Below the pieces are notes generated by a model. It was not told the origin of the DNA and did no database searches. It worked only from the letters and a program-made list of their open reading frames with translations. DNA of 60,809 nucleotides from Candidatus Altiarchaeales archaeon WOR_SM1_SCG (GTDB lineage Archaea; Altiarchaeota; Altiarchaeia; IMC4; WOR-SM1-SCG). The position numbers and the translations under genes are program-made. Numbering within the stretch: the first letter of the stretch is position 1; the number at the start of each line of letters is the position of its first letter. Location of the stretch: positions 1 to 60,809 of the forward strand of contig MCBE01000217.1 of NCBI GenBank assembly GCA_001723845.1, in the 5' to 3' direction. Shown here piece by piece: positions 12,736 through 60,809 of the stretch.

Positions 12736-13866
12736 ATGGCACTAATTGATATATTAAAGGAACCTTGGAATCTACTTAATAAACATTCGGCGGTAGGTGT
12801 TTTGATTGGGATAGTGGGTGTTTTGGTAGCGATTATCTCGCTTGTCCTATACATATTGAATAGTACACCAATAGATCCAATTTATGCTACAAGCCCATCG
12901 GAACTAATAGCAAAGACAGGTGAGAATGCTCCTCGCATGACTATCCTATGGGATGGTTCAGAAGTTTCAGATGTTAGGTCTGTAAAAGTTGCCTTTTGGA
13001 ATTCGGGGTCTGAATATATAGATGTCAAGAATATTCCAAAAGATAATCCAATTCAATTTGTACCTTCAGAAAAAGTTGAAATACTATCTGTAGAGTTATT
13101 AAAGTCAAGTAGGGAAAATTTGAAATTTAACACTTCAATCAAAGATGACTCAACATTGGGGCGACAAGTAGTTCAAGTTGACATTGTGGGTGATGAGGCG
13201 ATTGAACGACTGGATGGTGGGCTTTTTAAAGTCTTGTATACTGGAAAAGAAGAAAATGTTGAGTTTTCTGTAAATGGACGCATAAAAGGCGCACCTGAGG
13301 GGTTTAAGAAAAAGGATTGGAACGAAATTCAAAGATCTAAATTTATTAATTTTGGCTTTAGTTTTGTTGCGGGTATTTTTGCTATAATTGGTATCTCTTG
13401 GTACATTATTAGCCCACTTAAAAACGAAATAGAAAAGGGGTTGGATTTGTTTAGCTGGGATGATGTCCCTGGAAACGATAGTGAACACATGATAGAATTT
13501 TTAAAATATGATATGAAAATAGAATGGGTGGAAAATGCAGAAATCAAAAAAAGCGATGATGACAAAGTCATAACTGTTACAAATAGAGAGAACTCCATCG
13601 CATTCAACCTTAAAAAAGAAGAAAACAAAGTAACTCTGAAAATCAATGGTGTGAAGAGTCATGAATACATTTTGAAAGAAGATAAAGGTAATCTAAATAT
13701 ATACAATGATTTCTCTCTTAAAAACATTAGAGATGATCAGGACACATTCGGAAGATTATTGATATCTGCCCTAATATTATTATTTTTCATATATTTATCT
13801 GGCTCAAATATTATTGAATACTTTCATTATTTGGACATTCCCACTTGGCTTATTCACTTGGTATAG
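12736..13866 (+). CDS. Membrane protein (3 predicted TM) carrying an inserted YLFSW-type module
   Basis: Three hydrophobic segments; module lies between TM2 and TM3. Confidence 0.75.
   Translation: MALIDILKEPWNLLNKHSAVGVLIGIVGVLVAIISLVLYILNSTPIDPIYATSPSELIAKTGENAPRMTILWDGSEVSDVRSVKVAFWNSGSEYIDVKNIPKDNPIQFVPSEKVEILSVELLKSSRENLKFNTSIKDDSTLGRQVVQVDIVGDEAIERLDGGLFKVLYTGKEENVEFSVNGRIKGAPEGFKKKDWNEIQRSKFINFGFSFVAGIFAIIGISWYIISPLKNEIEKGLDLFSWDDVPGNDSEHMIEFLKYDMKIEWVENAEIKKSDDDKVITVTNRENSIAFNLKKEENKVTLKINGVKSHEYILKEDKGNLNIYNDFSLKNIRDDQDTFGRLLISALILLFFIYLSGSNIIEYFHYLDIPTWLIHLV
13444..13704 (+). mobile_element. In-frame insertion module, copy 1 (87 codons)
   Basis: DLFSWDDVPGND...KGNLNIY; 48/87 identical to 60390-60650 by manual ungapped alignment; ends 10/14 complementary. 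Confidence 0.65.
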
Positions 13867-28512: not shown

Positions 28513-30837
28513 TTATTTACTATTCTTTTTTAACTTAGTATAGTAATAATAAATTCCAATAACATAAAATAAAAAGCTTAATACACCCATCCCTATCTTG
28601 TACATTATATCGAGGGGTATATAATATAAAACAACAGAAGTGCACAACATAAGAATAGTAGCAAGTAAGCACAAATTTTTATTTCTTTTTATCTTATTAG
28701 ATATTCGCTTCATTTGATCGTAAAATAATAAATTAATAACCCAAAAAATAATAAGGAGTTCAAGTATTATAATCATTATAAAGGCATTGGTGTTAAGACC
28801 CTGTAAGAAAACTATACAATCAAAAAATATGATTACTAAAAGTAATAAACCAATCTTTAATAAATCTGTTGTTCGTGTTAAGTTATCTAATTTCTTATGA
28901 AAATCGTTAATTGTTTTATCTTTTTCACTTAACTTACCTGCTTGATCACCAATTGTTTTATCTTTTTCACTTAACTTACCTGCTTGATCACCAATTGTTT
29001 TATCTTTTTCACTTAACTTACCTTCTTGATCACTAATTGTTTTATCTTTTTCACTTAACTTACCTTCTTGATCACTAATTGTTTTATCTTTTTCTTTCAA
29101 TTTTGATTTAAGTTTTTCATCTTTTTTTACTTTATTTTTGATTTCTTCCATTATTTCATTAGATCCTTCAGGATATTTTTCCAAATCAAAAGCATCGTCA
29201 TCAGGTTTATCAGACTCTTTAGTTATAAGTTCCATGACATAATGGCTACCCATTGTTTTTGCAATTTCTTCGGTGGTTAAGTCTTCGTCATCCATCCAAG
29301 GTCCAATTAACTTTAATTTATCAAAGGTTATAACAGGAGGTACCCTCGTTAATCTGCGGATTAGCAAATCATTAAAAACTTCCATACAATCCTTATTAGC
29401 AATATCTGGAGCTAATAACGTGGAAATCATTTCTATCCATTTTTGAAAGTATATACTCATATGAACGGATCCTTCCCCAAAATATTCTCGGTTTACATAA
29501 TATAAACTTCTATCACAGGTTATAAACCAGTAGTTAGGAATCACAGAGGATTCTTCTTCCTTTTCCCTTAATTTTTCCATTAATAATAAATGATATGCAT
29601 CATGTTCTGCTGTTTTTTTGTTTTTCTTACTTCCCTGCGCTATCACCAATGACGTGAGTTCGTCCATTTCAGATTCTGTATACATACCCTCATAGGATTT
29701 TTCATCAATTGAGATATTGTAAACGTTTTTCAAAATTGATCTGGTTTGTTGCTTTAGTTTCATATAATAAGCATCCCATTTTAATGTTGGATTTTCATAT
29801 TTTTTACTAAAAAAATCCGTAAAAAAAATTGAGGGGAATATCTTTTCAAGTTTGTGATATGTTCTATTATGTAACTTATTTATTTTTGTTTTATATTCTT
29901 GATAAGAATTATTAGAGTGATCTAGAACATCAAAATATTCCTCTTCAGTCCTTTTTGTATATAATACATTTATTCCTAAATCCTTCGTTAATTCTATTAA
30001 TTTTTTGATTCCGAGATGAAAATCGTTATTGATTAATAGCGAAATTGTAACATTTGTATCCAAATATACCACATTTTTTGAAAAGTTCTCTTTTAGAAGC
30101 ATATTACATTCAGGATCAAAATTCAATATCTCAAGTATATAATAACTCTGAGCCAGTGAATATAAATATTTGGACATTTCTATGTTCTGATTGAGAATTA
30201 AATCTTTGATAACACCCATTTCTATATTTTTTAATTCTTCATTTTCAGAACTTACAACTATTTTTTCCAATAATAATTGAAAATCCATACCAACAAAGTA
30301 ATCATAATCATCAGTTTTATGATTTAATATCTTTCCTGCAAAACCAATATCTCTGATATTTGGCCCAATACCTTGCTCGCGAAATAGAATCCCCAATACA
30401 TTTCGAAAATCTGATATAATCCCTCTTTTTTCTTTCATGTCTAATTTTCCGAATCGTTCTTTGATATTTGAAATTAATTTTTGCTCAATATCCATTCTAT
30501 TCGTTTCATATTCCTCTTCATGTTCATCTAATTCTGTTTGTTTATTAGCAGATAACGAATATTTAACTCCACTATATGTTTGATTAGGATTTATATATTC
30601 CCTCTCTTCTAATCTTTTTAGTGCCTCTTTTATTTTGTCTTTGGAAACTTTTTTGATGCCGAGGTTATTCTCGATATTAGATATAATTTCGTTCTCACTT
30701 AGCTTCTCATCCGCACTTTTTAATGCAATCATTAGTAAATAGTCATATAACTCATCTCTTATCTCATCAGTCTCTCGGTTTAAAACAAAAACTTGTAATT
30801 TCATCAACGCCCTTTTGGTTTGCTCCACATCATACAT
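28513..30837 (-). CDS. Large wHTH + PIN-like + repeat + 4TM protein
   Basis: VYLDTNV, AEHDAYH, WFITCDRSL; 14-aa repeats; C-terminal TM segments. Confidence 0.7.
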   Translation of the reverse strand: MYDVEQTKRALMKLQVFVLNRETDEIRDELYDYLLMIALKSADEKLSENEIISNIENNLGIKKVSKDKIKEALKRLEEREYINPNQTYSGVKYSLSANKQTELDEHEEEYETNRMDIEQKLISNIKERFGKLDMKEKRGIISDFRNVLGILFREQGIGPNIRDIGFAGKILNHKTDDYDYFVGMDFQLLLEKIVVSSENEELKNIEMGVIKDLILNQNIEMSKYLYSLAQSYYILEILNFDPECNMLLKENFSKNVVYLDTNVTISLLINNDFHLGIKKLIELTKDLGINVLYTKRTEEEYFDVLDHSNNSYQEYKTKINKLHNRTYHKLEKIFPSIFFTDFFSKKYENPTLKWDAYYMKLKQQTRSILKNVYNISIDEKSYEGMYTESEMDELTSLVIAQGSKKNKKTAEHDAYHLLLMEKLREKEEESSVIPNYWFITCDRSLYYVNREYFGEGSVHMSIYFQKWIEMISTLLAPDIANKDCMEVFNDLLIRRLTRVPPVITFDKLKLIGPWMDDEDLTTEEIAKTMGSHYVMELITKESDKPDDDAFDLEKYPEGSNEIMEEIKNKVKKDEKLKSKLKEKDKTISDQEGKLSEKDKTISDQEGKLSEKDKTIGDQAGKLSEKDKTIGDQAGKLSEKDKTINDFHKKLDNLTRTTDLLKIGLLLLVIIFFDCIVFLQGLNTNAFIMIIILELLIIFWVINLLFYDQMKRISNKIKRNKNLCLLATILMLCTSVVLYYIPLDIMYKIGMGVLSFLFYVIGIYYYYTKLKKNSK
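28908..29093. repeat. 42-bp coding tandem repeat (~4.5 units)
   Basis: KLSEKDKTI(S/G)DQ(E/A)G repeated. Confidence 0.9.
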
Positions 30838-35390: not shown

Positions 35391-36419
35391 TTACCTCATA
35401 TATTTCCTTGCAAATATAGCAATGAACGCCGCCCACATGAAAGTTCCGAAGACGGCTTCAGAGGCAGCTAATAATTGATAAATTCCCTTGACTGGTTCGT
35501 AATCGCCGTATCCAAGTGTGGTGATTGTGACAATGCTGAAATAAACACATTCTTGAAAGGAAGACGCACCCACGACGGCATTTCCCTGCCAGTAGAGAAA
35601 AGCACAACCGAATACAACAGAAAACCATAAGATTAAGACGCCCCACCAGTAAGTGCCGTAGCCAAATATGTATTGAACCGGGAGTTCTAAAGTTCTTATG
35701 ATTGTGTTCTTTTGTTTTCTTTTTGCTTCCATTTCACGGTAGAAATAGTAATCTGCTTCTTCTTGGTCCCTTAATTTTTCACAGATTATTTTTGCTTTTC
35801 TGCACGCTTCTTCTTGAGTTTTTGGAATTTTGAACTTTGTGTCTTTAAAAATCAATTTTCCTTTTATTTTGAGCCCTTCAAAAGAAGCATATTCTTTTAT
35901 ACTGGCTCTTTCAAACCAAGCATCTCCCCTGATATTTATTCCTTTAAACCAAGCACACCCCTTTATATTGGTTTCTTCAAACGAAATACCCCCACCGATA
36001 TTAGCTCTTTCAAACGAAATACCCCCTCCGAGATTAGCCCCTTTAAACCAACTAAATCCCCCGATATTAGCTCTTTCAAACGAAGCTTTTCCACTAATAT
36101 TGGCTCTTTCAAACCAAACTCCTCTACTTATATTCGTTCCCCTAAATAAAGCATTTTTTCTAATATCTGCATATTGAAAATTCAAATCACCTTCAATTTC
36201 CATCCCGGAAAAATCAACTTCAAATAATCTCGCCCCATCAAAATTAAAATCCTTGTCCTTTACTTTCTTTTTAACTTTCTCCTCTTTCAACTCATTTATC
36301 CTCTTGAATTCCTCGCTTCCTTCAGCTTCCGGCAGTTCAATATGAAGTATGCAGTATTTTGACTTTTCAAACGCCTCTTCCTCGCATTTTCTCCCGTTTC
36401 TAAATTTATACTCGCACAT
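35391..36419 (-). CDS. Pentapeptide-repeat + 2TM potassium-channel domain protein
   Basis: FERANI repeats; YFSIVTITTLGYGD. Confidence 0.85.
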   Translation of the reverse strand: MCEYKFRNGRKCEEEAFEKSKYCILHIELPEAEGSEEFKRINELKEEKVKKKVKDKDFNFDGARLFEVDFSGMEIEGDLNFQYADIRKNALFRGTNISRGVWFERANISGKASFERANIGGFSWFKGANLGGGISFERANIGGGISFEETNIKGCAWFKGINIRGDAWFERASIKEYASFEGLKIKGKLIFKDTKFKIPKTQEEACRKAKIICEKLRDQEEADYYFYREMEAKRKQKNTIIRTLELPVQYIFGYGTYWWGVLILWFSVVFGCAFLYWQGNAVVGASSFQECVYFSIVTITTLGYGDYEPVKGIYQLLAASEAVFGTFMWAAFIAIFARKYMR

Positions 36420-41105: not shown

Positions 41106-42038
41106 ATGTACAATGAAGATGAAAAACCTATAACAAAGGATTTTAAGATAGGTGAGGAAACTTACGGTCTTGTTTTGACTTTGAGCAACGATTATTCTTA
41201 CATTGAAAGAGATTTTGATAAGTTAAAAAATAAAATTGAAAAATATGGGGGTGCAAAGATTATATGGGTGAACTCTCTTTTTGGCATACAAGACTCGGTA
41301 ATTCTTCTACGCGCAACAGGAGATATGGACAAAGCAGTACATGTTTTTGATGAATGGGTCGTTACCAATTATAAAAACGCTAAAACCCCTGCAATTCCTT
41401 TACCATTTAAACATCTTAGTTATACTGCGGAAAAAGATATGTTAGAAGATGTGTTTAATGCGATAGAATCGCCTAAAAGCGTTGCAAAGTTTGGTCAAAA
41501 AGATCCTAAATTAGGATATGTAAATATTATGGGGGAGTGGGGAAGAATGACAAAGAGATATTTATTTAGCTTGAATGAGCTATCTGGAGAAAACAAAAAT
41601 CAGTTTCTAAAATTCATTGAGAAAGAGTTAGACATACCTGTAGCGAAAAATCCAAAAATCATTAAATCTGATAACAAGGAAATAATTATAAGGGATGATA
41701 AAAACTGGATTAACCTTAAACTTGATATCAACACAGATGAGAAAAAGATAAATATAACAGTCTCTGGCGGAAAAACTTATGAATACGTTTTAGAAAAAGA
41801 AAGTGGCAAGCTAAACATATATACAAAAGGTGAAATAAGGAAAAAATTTGAAGTTTTTGAGTACTGGGTAGATCCACTAATTCCTATTTTTGTTAATGAA
41901 CCGATATTAAAAGAAAATAATTCTCCTTTTGTAATAATCTATTTGAGATTTGATAAAAGAAAGGGATACTCTTTAAAAGATACGTATTCTGCGTTTAACA
42001 CTCATGAAAATCTAAAATCTATGGACTTTTGGAAATGA
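41106..42038 (+). CDS. Hypothetical protein carrying an inserted YLFSW-type module
   Basis: Open frame; LFGIQDSVILL resembles an Lrp/AsnC-like fold segment. Confidence 0.65.
   Translation: MYNEDEKPITKDFKIGEETYGLVLTLSNDYSYIERDFDKLKNKIEKYGGAKIIWVNSLFGIQDSVILLRATGDMDKAVHVFDEWVVTNYKNAKTPAIPLPFKHLSYTAEKDMLEDVFNAIESPKSVAKFGQKDPKLGYVNIMGEWGRMTKRYLFSLNELSGENKNQFLKFIEKELDIPVAKNPKIIKSDNKEIIIRDDKNWINLKLDINTDEKKINITVSGGKTYEYVLEKESGKLNIYTKGEIRKKFEVFEYWVDPLIPIFVNEPILKENNSPFVIIYLRFDKRKGYSLKDTYSAFNTHENLKSMDFWK
41559..41822 (+). mobile_element. In-frame insertion module, copy 2 (88 codons)
   Basis: YLFSLNELSGEN...VSGGKTYEYVLEKESGKLNIY; ends 14/16 complementary. Confidence 0.65.
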
Positions 42039-57321: not shown

Positions 57322-57347
57322 GGTTATTTGAAAAATATTCTAAATAT

Positions 57348-57493
57348 TATTTAAATTTAGAATTCAGAGTAAATTATTAATCCACTGCTCCTCTCTCCTT
57401 TAAAAATTTAATCTGAATTCTATTTAAATTTAGAATTCAGAGTAAATTATTAATCCACTGCTCCTCTCTCCTTTAAAAATTTAATCTGAATTC
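57348..57493. repeat. Perfect 73-bp tandem duplication
   Basis: 57348-57420 = 57421-57493. Confidence 0.95.
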
Positions 57494-59588: not shown

Positions 59589-59789
59589 TATTTATACTTG
59601 AGTTTCAAAGATATTAGATTTCTAACATAATAAATTTTATTTACCCCATTTACTGATGTTGGTTTTTGTTATCTCACTTTTTGTATTTTGTTGCCATGTC
59701 AAAATTTTAAATAAAATCAGTGTGCTTTAATACTTTAACTAACAAATGTTGCCATGTCATTTAATTTATTTAATATCTAATACAATAAC

Positions 59790-60809
59790 ATGGAACTAAC
59801 AACTAAAGAAATAATGGCAATAAAACCCTACATTGAAATCATTAGAAAAAAAGGTAGAATGCCTCAATATACTCTTGTAAGAAAAAAACGGGTAAATGGA
59901 GAAGTAAAAAGAGTGTGGAGTAAGTATCTGGGCACAGCAGAAACGATCGAGAAATTCTATAAAAACTGTGAAGAATGCACTGATATGAAACTCAAAAGTT
60001 TTGAGTATGGAAGAACGGCAGCACTAATGAAAATAGCAGAAGAACTAAATTTTGTTGAGATCGTAAATAAACACACAACCAAAAAGAAGATTGAAGGGCT
60101 GACAGTTGGTGAATACATGCTATTGATTATCCTTAGCAGAGCCGATGAACCAATAAGCAAAAACGGAATCTCCGACTGGTTTGACGATTCTTTTCTCGAT
60201 TTAATGTGGGTATTTTCGCACAAACTGAACACTCAAAATTTTACGAACCACATGGATTATCTCACAGATGAAGTAATGCGAAAAATCGGGGATGACCTGG
60301 GAAAAAGACTTGTTGAGCTTGGTGTGGCACCAACAAAGTTATATATTGATATGAGCAATGTCTTCACATATATGGAAAATGGGGGAACGTATTTGTTTAG
60401 CTGGAATAATATTCCCGGAAACGACAGCAAGCGACTCATAAACCATCTTTTGGATAATCTAAAAATAGGTTGGGTAAAAAACGCAACAATCAATAAAAAC
60501 AATGACTGTAAAATAATAACAGTTACGGAAGGGGAAAACTCAGTTGAACTAAAACTTAACGAGAAAGAAAACAAAGTAGTCTTAAAAATCAGTGGCGGTA
60601 AAACCTATGAATATATCTTAAAAGAGAAGAAGGGTAAGCTAAAGGTATACGGCGGGGAGATGCCTAAAAAAGGTAGGGGTAAAGAGAAACGATATGATAA
60701 AAATATAATCGGCATAGGAATAGTAACAAGTGATGAAAACATCCCAATGCTTCACGAGTCATATCCCGGAAACAAGCACGATTCACAAATATTTGCCGGG
60801 ATTTTTATG
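59790..60809 (+). mobile_element. IS1634-family transposase (3'-partial, runs off window; absent from the ORF track)
   Basis: Manual translation: KYLGTAE..EYG..GLTVGEY..SKNGISDWF..IDMSNVFTY [insert] KKGRGKEKRYD..IGIVT..IPMLHESYPGNKHD. Confidence 0.88.
60390..60650 (+). mobile_element. In-frame insertion module, copy 3 (87 codons), inside the transposase
   Basis: YLFSWNNIPGNDS...ISGGKTYEYILKEKKGKLKVY; ends 11/14 complementary. Confidence 0.75.

Follow-up and report, generated by a model that had tools for sequence, protein, structure and literature searches.

How new domains come to lie in the middle of proteins is an old question, for which there are few clear mechanistic examples in prokaryotes. 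The question is raised in concrete form by a contig of Candidatus Altiarchaeales archaeon WOR_SM1_SCG (MCBE01000217.1; contig C217 of a 2.55-Mb, 300-contig, 74%-complete assembly, G000), the whole 60,809-bp stretch of which was analyzed and is referred to here as the window. Three open reading frames (ORFs) in the window each contain a copy of the same 87-residue peptide module (copies 1 to 3, Table 1). A preliminary description of this DNA held that the terminal codons of the module form imperfect inverted repeats, and that its conserved peptide ends are either translated DNA ends, as in a MITE (a miniature transposable element with inverted repeats), or an RNA stem that brings the two ends together. 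The evidence presented below favors the first of these: with a probability of about 90%, the module is a small mobile DNA element without a transposase gene, whose terminal inverted repeats (TIRs) are read as codons and whose jumps add a folded domain rather than break the host gene.

Target-site duplications and an empty site

The flanks of the module carry a short duplication. When the 9 nucleotides (nt) before the first tyrosine codon are compared with the 9 nt after the last one in 81 distinct copies (all sources combined), 55% of positions are identical, as against 35.3 ± 1.6% in shuffled flank pairs, with a maximum of 40.7% in 2000 shuffles. Identity is 0.48–0.68 at each of sites 0–7 and drops to 0.30 at site 8; the target-site duplication (TSD) is therefore 8 bp long, and the first base of the element is the one preceding TAT. 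With G there in 49 of the 81 copies, the boundaries read GTAT...ATAC. With near-duplicates removed (71 copies), the flanks match at a mean of 4.75 of 8 positions (2.88 ± 0.14 in shuffles). At least six positions match in 30 of the 71, where 3.9% would be expected, and nine copies have an exact TSD, three of them in this genome (GAAAACTT, AAAGAGAA and AAAAATGA). The target 8-mers are A-rich. A corresponding echo is present in the flanking peptide, with identities of 0.30, 0.28 and 0.21 compared with 0.086, 0.089 and 0.061 after shuffling (215 modules in the 150 best representative proteins).

The dipeptide echoes TK..TK and GG..GG beside copies 2 and 3, which had been suspected of being decayed TSDs, are real at the DNA level, where the 8-mers ACAAAGAG/ACAAAAGG match at 6 of 8 positions and GGGGGAAC/GGCGGGGA at 4 of 8, and the 8-bp signal over 71–81 copies bears the suspicion out. 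Copy 1 was said to show no echo; its flanks, AAGGGGTT/AATGATTT, in fact match at 5 of 8 positions.

For copy 3, which lies in a transposase gene, a filled and an empty site can be compared directly. A contig of a related genome (G041:C247) codes for a transposase that is 78% identical to that of the window and lacks the module. The empty site reads GAA AAC GGT GGG GAG ATG, and the filled site in the window reads GAA AAT GGG GGA ACG [TAT...TAC] GGC GGG GAG ATG, exactly 270 nt longer. This difference equals 262 + 8, the target at this site is GGTGGGGA, and the GG..GG echo of copy 3 is this 8-bp duplication. A comparison of filled and empty sites had been proposed as a means of defining the length of the TSD, and this pair is consistent with 8 bp. 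Another homologue in the same related genome (G041:C165) bears the module at an alternative site about 130 residues further on. Copy 2 sits in an ORF that matches no family in Pfam or NCBIfam and that, apart from the module, has no homologues, and hence no empty site was found for that copy. A look-up of sequencing runs for this gene listed none.

The ORF that hosts copy 3 is a partial IS1634-family transposase (NCBIfam NF033559, E = 2.4e-20, 73 bits, a score short of the cut-off, 100, because the window ends before the ORF does). The insertion sequence (IS) to which it belongs starts at window position 59597 (CTTGAGTTTC...), and its visible ~1.2 kb are 100% identical at no fewer than eight loci with different upstream flanks, two further copies being 99.8–99.9% identical and containing stop codons. 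Copies are found in the window and on contigs C292, C281, C41, C150, C136, C46, C19, C186 and C209, all of which break at the same internal position, and the transposase-borne copy of the module recurs at ten contig ends. No module-free paralogue of this transposase was found in the assembly. Given the identical copies, their different flanks and the lack of such a paralogue, the IS multiplied after the module had inserted into it, which speaks for tolerance of the insert by this host.

Terminal inverted repeats

The element is about 262 bp long and has 14-nt ends with the consensus GTATTTGTTTAGCT ... AGCTAAACATATAC. The left end and the reverse complement of the right end, GTATATGTTTAGCT, match at 13 of 14 positions. 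In individual copies the complementarity is at least 11 of 14 in 34 cases out of 81; when left ends are set against 14-mers from the interior of their own elements, complementary positions number 4.64 ± 1.68 on average, and 11 or more are reached in 0.012% of comparisons. The complementarity originally reported for the window copies was recovered, with 14 of 16 positions in copy 2 (ATATTTATTTAGCTTG ... CAAGCTAAACATATAT) and, in a fixed register of 14 pairs, 11 in copy 3 and 10 in copy 1; copy 2 has 12 Watson–Crick pairs in that register. The left repeat is translated as Y-L-F-S(-W) and the right repeat as (K-)L-N-I-Y, and the product of 87 residues includes both.

Autonomous elements and MITEs with the same ends

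Allowing up to two mismatches, the 14-mer occurs at 68 sites in the genome, 40 of which lie outside modules, and IS ends with the same repeat are located on contigs C149, C187, C251, C279 and C53. A search for autonomous elements with a matching TIR, suggested at the outset, identified IS66-family elements in relatives. An element of 1650 bp (L130) has exact GTATTTGTTTAGCT/AGCTAAACAAATAC ends and codes for a 453-aa transposase scoring 229.5 bits on the NCBIfam model of the IS66 family (NF033517, cut-off 180 bits). L133 has the same ends or a close variant of them and a 449-aa transposase (243.1 bits), while L129 has the variant ends GTACGTGTTTAGCT/AGCTAAACACATAC, an exact 8-bp TSD, GATTTATG, and a 462-aa transposase (262.6 bits). 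The IS66 family is described as generally making 8-bp duplications (PMC3916326). The likeness among IS ends, MITE ends and the module consensus is one of identity over exactly 14 nt, with none beyond.

An IS whose two ends are GTGTTTGTTTAGCT lies nested inside the transposase-borne copy of the module in this genome. Module nt 1–60 run up to one IS end on contig C53 (127–186), and on contigs C189 (253–1165) and C172 (446–1358) the module resumes at nt 53 behind the other IS end; the two parts overlap by 8 nt (module nt 53–60), which are the target duplication of the nested IS. The visible 243 aa of its transposase match NF033517 (E = 2.3e-17) and zf-IS66.

The same ends are also found on non-coding MITEs. 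One of these, 195 bp long, is present in this genome (C66:24368-24562) with CAAAATGA on both flanks. The exact 14-mer occurs 2–24 times in each of five relatives, in which a backwards control pattern occurs 0 times. Ten pairs of 14-mers sampled in relatives delimit nine non-coding MITEs of 101–325 bp and one element of 1381 bp, and the flanking 8-mers of the nine MITEs match at 8 of 8 positions in three, 7 in two, 6 in three and 3 in one. Taken with the 8-bp TSD and the filled/empty pair, the presence of the 14-nt TIR on both IS66 elements and MITEs upholds the proposal that the conserved peptide ends of the module are translated DNA ends.

An IS66-family transposase encoded on short repeat contigs, on C179 and at the end of C255 (NF033517, E = 2.7e-23; PF03050) was considered as a partner of the module and rejected, since it has no GTATTTGTTTAGCT-type repeat upstream; it belongs to a different IS66 lineage of the same genome. 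No second end pairs with a solo TIR-like site at C278:11694, and no transposase lies close to it. Separately, a repeat of ~127 nt was observed at C149:1-127, at the ends of C162, C181, C175, C298, C245 and C66, and internally at C234:37562-37686. It interrupts an IS66-type transposase ORF on C149, lies in frame within a 422-aa ORF on C234, and may be a second repeat living inside coding sequence.

Reading frame and encoded domain

Of the 81 copies, 44 are 262 bp long and the others depart from this length by multiples of 3. All 81 have frame +1 open and 22 have frame -1 open; frames +0, +2, -0 and -2 are never open. All 33 matches of a DNA profile in the genome coincide with in-frame protein matches. 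The 87-aa module matches no Pfam or NCBIfam model and no transposase family.

AlphaFold2, given an alignment of 16 copies, predicts a compact structure of two helices followed by six strands (predicted local distance difference test, pLDDT, 94.3; predicted template-modeling score, pTM, 0.83). In addition, a short strand of two residues is placed at positions 3-4, and it may pair with the final strand (residues 83-86). No relative of the module was found in the ESM Atlas (best score 0.80). Foldseek returned nothing at E ≤ 1e-3 from the PDB (top match frataxin, 2e-2), and the best Z in a wide VIA-align search was 5.1; there is no clear match to a solved structure, and no fold was assigned. The ratio of nonsynonymous to synonymous divergence (dN/dS) to the consensus is about 0.15-0.55 (Nei-Gojobori), or around 0.3 overall, and the encoded domain is thus under purifying selection.

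Distribution and host proteins

A hidden Markov model (HMM) built from the copies gives 33 matches in the assembly, of which 26 are full length and 17 are distinct, in host ORFs of 103 to 5439 aa. Within the phylum, 8 of 61 genomes have matches, and the four genomes of one genus contain 8–15 apiece. Close relatives also occur on public contigs whose titles name ANME-1, Candidatus Altarchaeum, Methanoperedens, Methanosarcinales and Methanobacteriota. When 1.84 billion representative proteins were searched with a profile, 2056 matched at E ≤ 1e-3 and 132 of these at E ≤ 1e-30, and many of the 2056 matching proteins have 2–12 matched stretches. The hosts identified by a Pfam scan of the 33 top matches include NB-ARC/STAND NTPases, HNH, KAP NTPase, GAF, pentapeptide and TPR proteins, the RAMP, Cmr3 and Csa2 CRISPR proteins, baseplate J and Eco57I-type methylases. 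The module interrupts a Pfam domain (RAMPs, KAP_NTPase or Eco57I) in three or more of these 33 proteins, lying within the span of that domain.

One copy was found nested in another at C267:15564-16082, where residues 1-28 are followed by a full copy and then by residues 31-87, all within a 5439-aa ORF. Partial units of residues 30-87 adjoin full units in several relatives. These arrangements suggest a preferred break or insertion point near residue 29 of the module. In addition, an exact GTATTTGTTTAGCT at C241:5726 opens a diverged module-like ORF, YLFSLNHDY...DLKVY (L122). This ORF is detected by neither the protein HMM nor the DNA profile, and the family is therefore wider than the counts given here.

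Copies 1 and 3 of the window were located by a tblastn search of the window with the copy-2 peptide. The module is absent from the 20 largest direct-repeat families returned by a window-wide repeat finder, which missed it because the copies are too diverged at the DNA level; tblastn and the HMM were used instead. The window also contains tandem repeats unrelated to the module, at 35844-36153 (33-nt period, 8 copies), 28867-29118 (42-nt period, 5 copies) and 57331-57476 (73-nt unit, 2 copies).

Table 1. Module copies, their ends and flanks, and their host genes in the 60,809-bp window.
Feature	Position	Strand	Description
Module copy 2	41558..41822	+	265-bp non-autonomous element, in-frame RY-LFSL...KLNIY within ORF 41106-42038; tblastn 41559-41822, nhmmer 41559-41821
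Left TIR of copy 2	41558..41571	+	ATATTTATTTAGCT; family consensus GTATTTGTTTAGCT; codes (R)YLFS
Right TIR of copy 2	41809..41822	+	AGCTAAACATATAT; codes (K)LNIY
Left 8-bp TSD copy, module copy 2	41550..41557	+	ACAAAGAG; 6/8 identical to right copy
Right 8-bp TSD copy, module copy 2	41823..41830	+	ACAAAAGG
Host ORF of copy 2	41106..42038	+	310 aa
Module copy 1	13443..13704	+	262 bp, in membrane-protein ORF 12736-13866; tblastn 13447-13704
Flanking 8-mers of copy 1	13435-13442, 13705-13712	+	AAGGGGTT and AATGATTT; 5/8 match
Module copy 3	60389..60650	+	262 bp, within IS1634-family transposase ORF; tblastn 60390-60650
Flanking 8-mers of copy 3	60381-60388, 60651-60658	+	GGGGGAAC and GGCGGGGA; 4/8 match
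IS1634-family insertion sequence (5' part) hosting copy 3	59597..60809	+	ORF 59790 to beyond 60809, off window end

Evidence against mobility and alternative explanations

Several observations weigh against the interpretation of the module as a mobile element. The TSD is weak in two of the three window copies, namely copies 3 and 1. The copies are old, with synonymous divergence (dS) to the consensus of ~0.35-2.4 (median near 0.6) and a median pairwise dS of 1.38 between copies. A DNA profile of the genome revealed no non-coding, out-of-frame or antisense copy, and the explanation must consequently assume that such copies have been lost. The right repeat of the module departs from the IS repeat at one base (ACATATAC vs ACAAATAC); this difference changes Lys to Ile in frame and is a possible sign that the fold has shaped the right repeat of the module. 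No complete IS66-type partner is assembled in this genome, where both ends and 243 aa are represented and the IS interior is absent from the assembly. Nor was a partner found in the four genomes of genus g27 (G041-G044, 8–15 modules each) or in G018, although these assemblies are 65-88% complete and repeats often fail to assemble in them. Furthermore, the 1381-bp element mentioned above (L136, G042:C3:4468-5848), which has the same ends and an exact 8-bp TSD, AAAATTAA, codes for a DDE_3/HTH transposase (PF13358, E = 7.9e-26) and not for one of the IS66 type. This DDE_3 element may be either a nested insertion or another user of these ends, and because of it the identity of the mobilizing enzyme is not fully settled. 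Finally, several interior codons of the module are as fixed as the terminal ones (GGA, for example, in 35 of 35), and the fraction of the top codon is 0.79 at the ends vs 0.69 in the interior (Mann-Whitney p = 0.09; 39 copies, 17 from this genome and 22 from other lineages).

The codons bear on the possibility that recombination or shuffling has spread the module as a promiscuous protein domain of the ordinary kind, the inverted repeat and the flank echoes being by-products of its conserved peptide ends and AT-rich codons. The use of AGC for Ser and CTA for Leu at the ends was correctly described for all three window copies, and in the long ORFs of the genome these codons make up 13.4% of Ser and 4.9% of Leu, respectively. 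Among the 17 copies of this genome, the terminal codons vary strikingly little (Ser AGC 8/9, Leu CTA 9/13, Leu TTG 10/15, Ile ATA 9/10), and many interior codons are just as fixed (GGA 17/17, ATA 17/17, GTA 11/11, CTT 13/14). In the set of 39 copies, the excess over genome codon usage is 0.46 at the ends vs 0.25 in the interior (p = 0.003). The check on synonymous conservation that had been proposed divides: the ends are slightly more conserved, but codons are conserved throughout the module. Taken by its letter, this criterion would nearly refute the TIR idea. It is not decisive for old copies, however, because these are no longer selected for mobility and because the whole module keeps its ancestral codons, its synonymous sites being not yet saturated. 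Codon conservation that extends over the module and is not confined to its ends would suit a promiscuous domain, as would the confident fold, the purifying selection and the tandem or partial copies in many proteins. Such a domain would nonetheless leave unexplained a flank duplication ~13 standard deviations above shuffles, a filled/empty difference of exactly 262 + 8 nt, and the occurrence of the same 14-nt ends on IS66-family elements and non-coding MITEs, and we regard it as very improbable.

An equally poor prospect is that the two ends pair in mRNA or single-stranded DNA and so join the boundaries of the module, for example in RNA-level excision or regulation. In the 81 copies, orthologues included, there are 793 Watson-Crick pairs of 1134 compared with 780.7 ± 6.8 in shuffles (p = 0.043), or 885 vs 874.2 ± 4.6 when G-U pairs are counted (p = 0.014), and two TTC/CTG double changes were seen by eye. 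Relatedness inflates covariation tests, however, and in the 39 copies the count of 373 of 546 Watson-Crick pairs hardly differs from the 368.9 ± 5.2 obtained with right ends shuffled (p = 0.24). Single changes mostly lack a compensating change, a match between the ends is just as much expected if both must fit one transposase, and the reading frame of the module has stayed open and constrained. The RNA stem offered as the second possibility in the preliminary description is thus not supported, the excess of covariation being at most marginal. An archaeal bulge-helix-bulge intron was also considered within these covariation tests; the pairing covers the element's own ends only and has no exon partner.

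An intein-like parasite, removed by protein splicing, would likewise be an in-frame insert within conserved domains of unrelated proteins, but its probability is close to nil, given that the module has no Hint or intein family match in Pfam or NCBIfam, starts Y-L-F and ends N-I-Y before a variable residue (K, E, N, D, G, T ...) with no junction nucleophile kept, and has TIRs and a TSD, which inteins do not.

Proposed mechanism

The module as a mobile element most likely spread as follows. A segment of ~262 bp with no transposase gene, bounded by the 14-nt TIRs and making an 8-bp TSD, would most likely be moved in trans by IS66-family transposases whose own elements bear the same ends. Since 262 + 8 = 270 nt, or 90 codons, the frame of the host gene is never shifted. 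The A-rich target 8-mers would correspond to Lys/Asn/Glu-rich coding stretches, plausibly surface loops, and the 87 translated residues are predicted to fold compactly into an alpha/beta domain. Survival would be confined to insertions whose frame and orientation are correct and that fall in tolerant parts of a protein, the host protein continuing to work. Once established, such copies could be lost only by precise excision and would persist, with purifying selection acting on the fold. Out-of-frame insertions would be purged, and non-coding copies would decay or be deleted, which would be why none are seen even though the copies have diverged by only some 0.5 substitutions per synonymous site.

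It is possible, although we would put the chances slightly below even, that the element is adapted to coding sequence: its TIRs double as the codons of the first and last strands, its length and TSD together make a multiple of three, and its fold would have been selected at the level of the element to be harmless anywhere.

Comparison with known systems

In-frame coding MITEs are established in the literature, in the form of the Rickettsia palindromic elements (RPEs) and of intragenic ERIC, BOX and Anabaena MITEs, as described in PMC10969869. The likeness to RPEs is a functional one, taken from their description: they are short mobile repeats with an open frame that are inserted in frame in unrelated genes and whose peptide is tolerated (PMC10969869). 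RPEs differ in being ~150 bp long, restricted to Rickettsia and apparently unrelated in sequence, and the passages that treat them in the same source name no cognate transposase or defined TSD. The present element, in contrast, has 14-nt TIRs, an 8-bp TSD, IS66-family candidate partners, an 87-residue domain with a confident predicted fold, and a range that spans several archaeal lineages. Some bacterial MITEs, intragenic ERIC/IRU and BOX among them, also carry ORFs and give rise to occasional in-frame fusions (Delihas 2007, as cited in PMC10969869). In those elements in-frame insertion is occasional and most copies are intergenic, whereas here 33 of 33 copies in the genome lie in frame within an ORF and encode a constrained domain.

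IS66-family insertion sequences have identical 14-nt terminal repeats and the same 8-bp duplication, but the module lacks a transposase gene and has nothing in common with them beyond the 14 terminal nt. Inteins are also selfish in-frame inserts in conserved proteins; they are spliced out of the protein and spread by means of homing endonucleases, while the module has no splicing motifs, stays in the protein and would move as DNA with TIRs and a TSD. In comparison with the coding MITEs already known, what differs is the defined transposon anatomy with a candidate partner family, the confidently folded and selected 87-residue product, the coding status of all detectable copies, and the wide range of hosts and of archaeal lineages. 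A search of a limited literature collection turned up no paper on the element or on its peptide motif.

Implications

The module is a case in which the full chain can be read from the sequence, from transposon ends, TSD and empty site to candidate autonomous partners and a folded, selected peptide that splits known enzymes. It offers a test of transposition as a route of domain insertion, and of the tolerance of proteins to an insert of 87 residues. In a bolder form of the view that the element is adapted to coding sequence, the inserted domain might not be inert; it might provide its hosts with a shared handle for interaction or regulation, or blunt defense proteins. For annotation, failure to recognize the module as mobile DNA will leave Cas, STAND and methylase genes labeled with a "domain of unknown function". 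If the element is indeed adapted to coding sequence, it would constitute a natural, transposon-driven generator of domain insertions, with a reach of more than 2000 protein clusters that include CRISPR RAMP proteins, STAND NTPases, restriction-modification methylases and other transposases.

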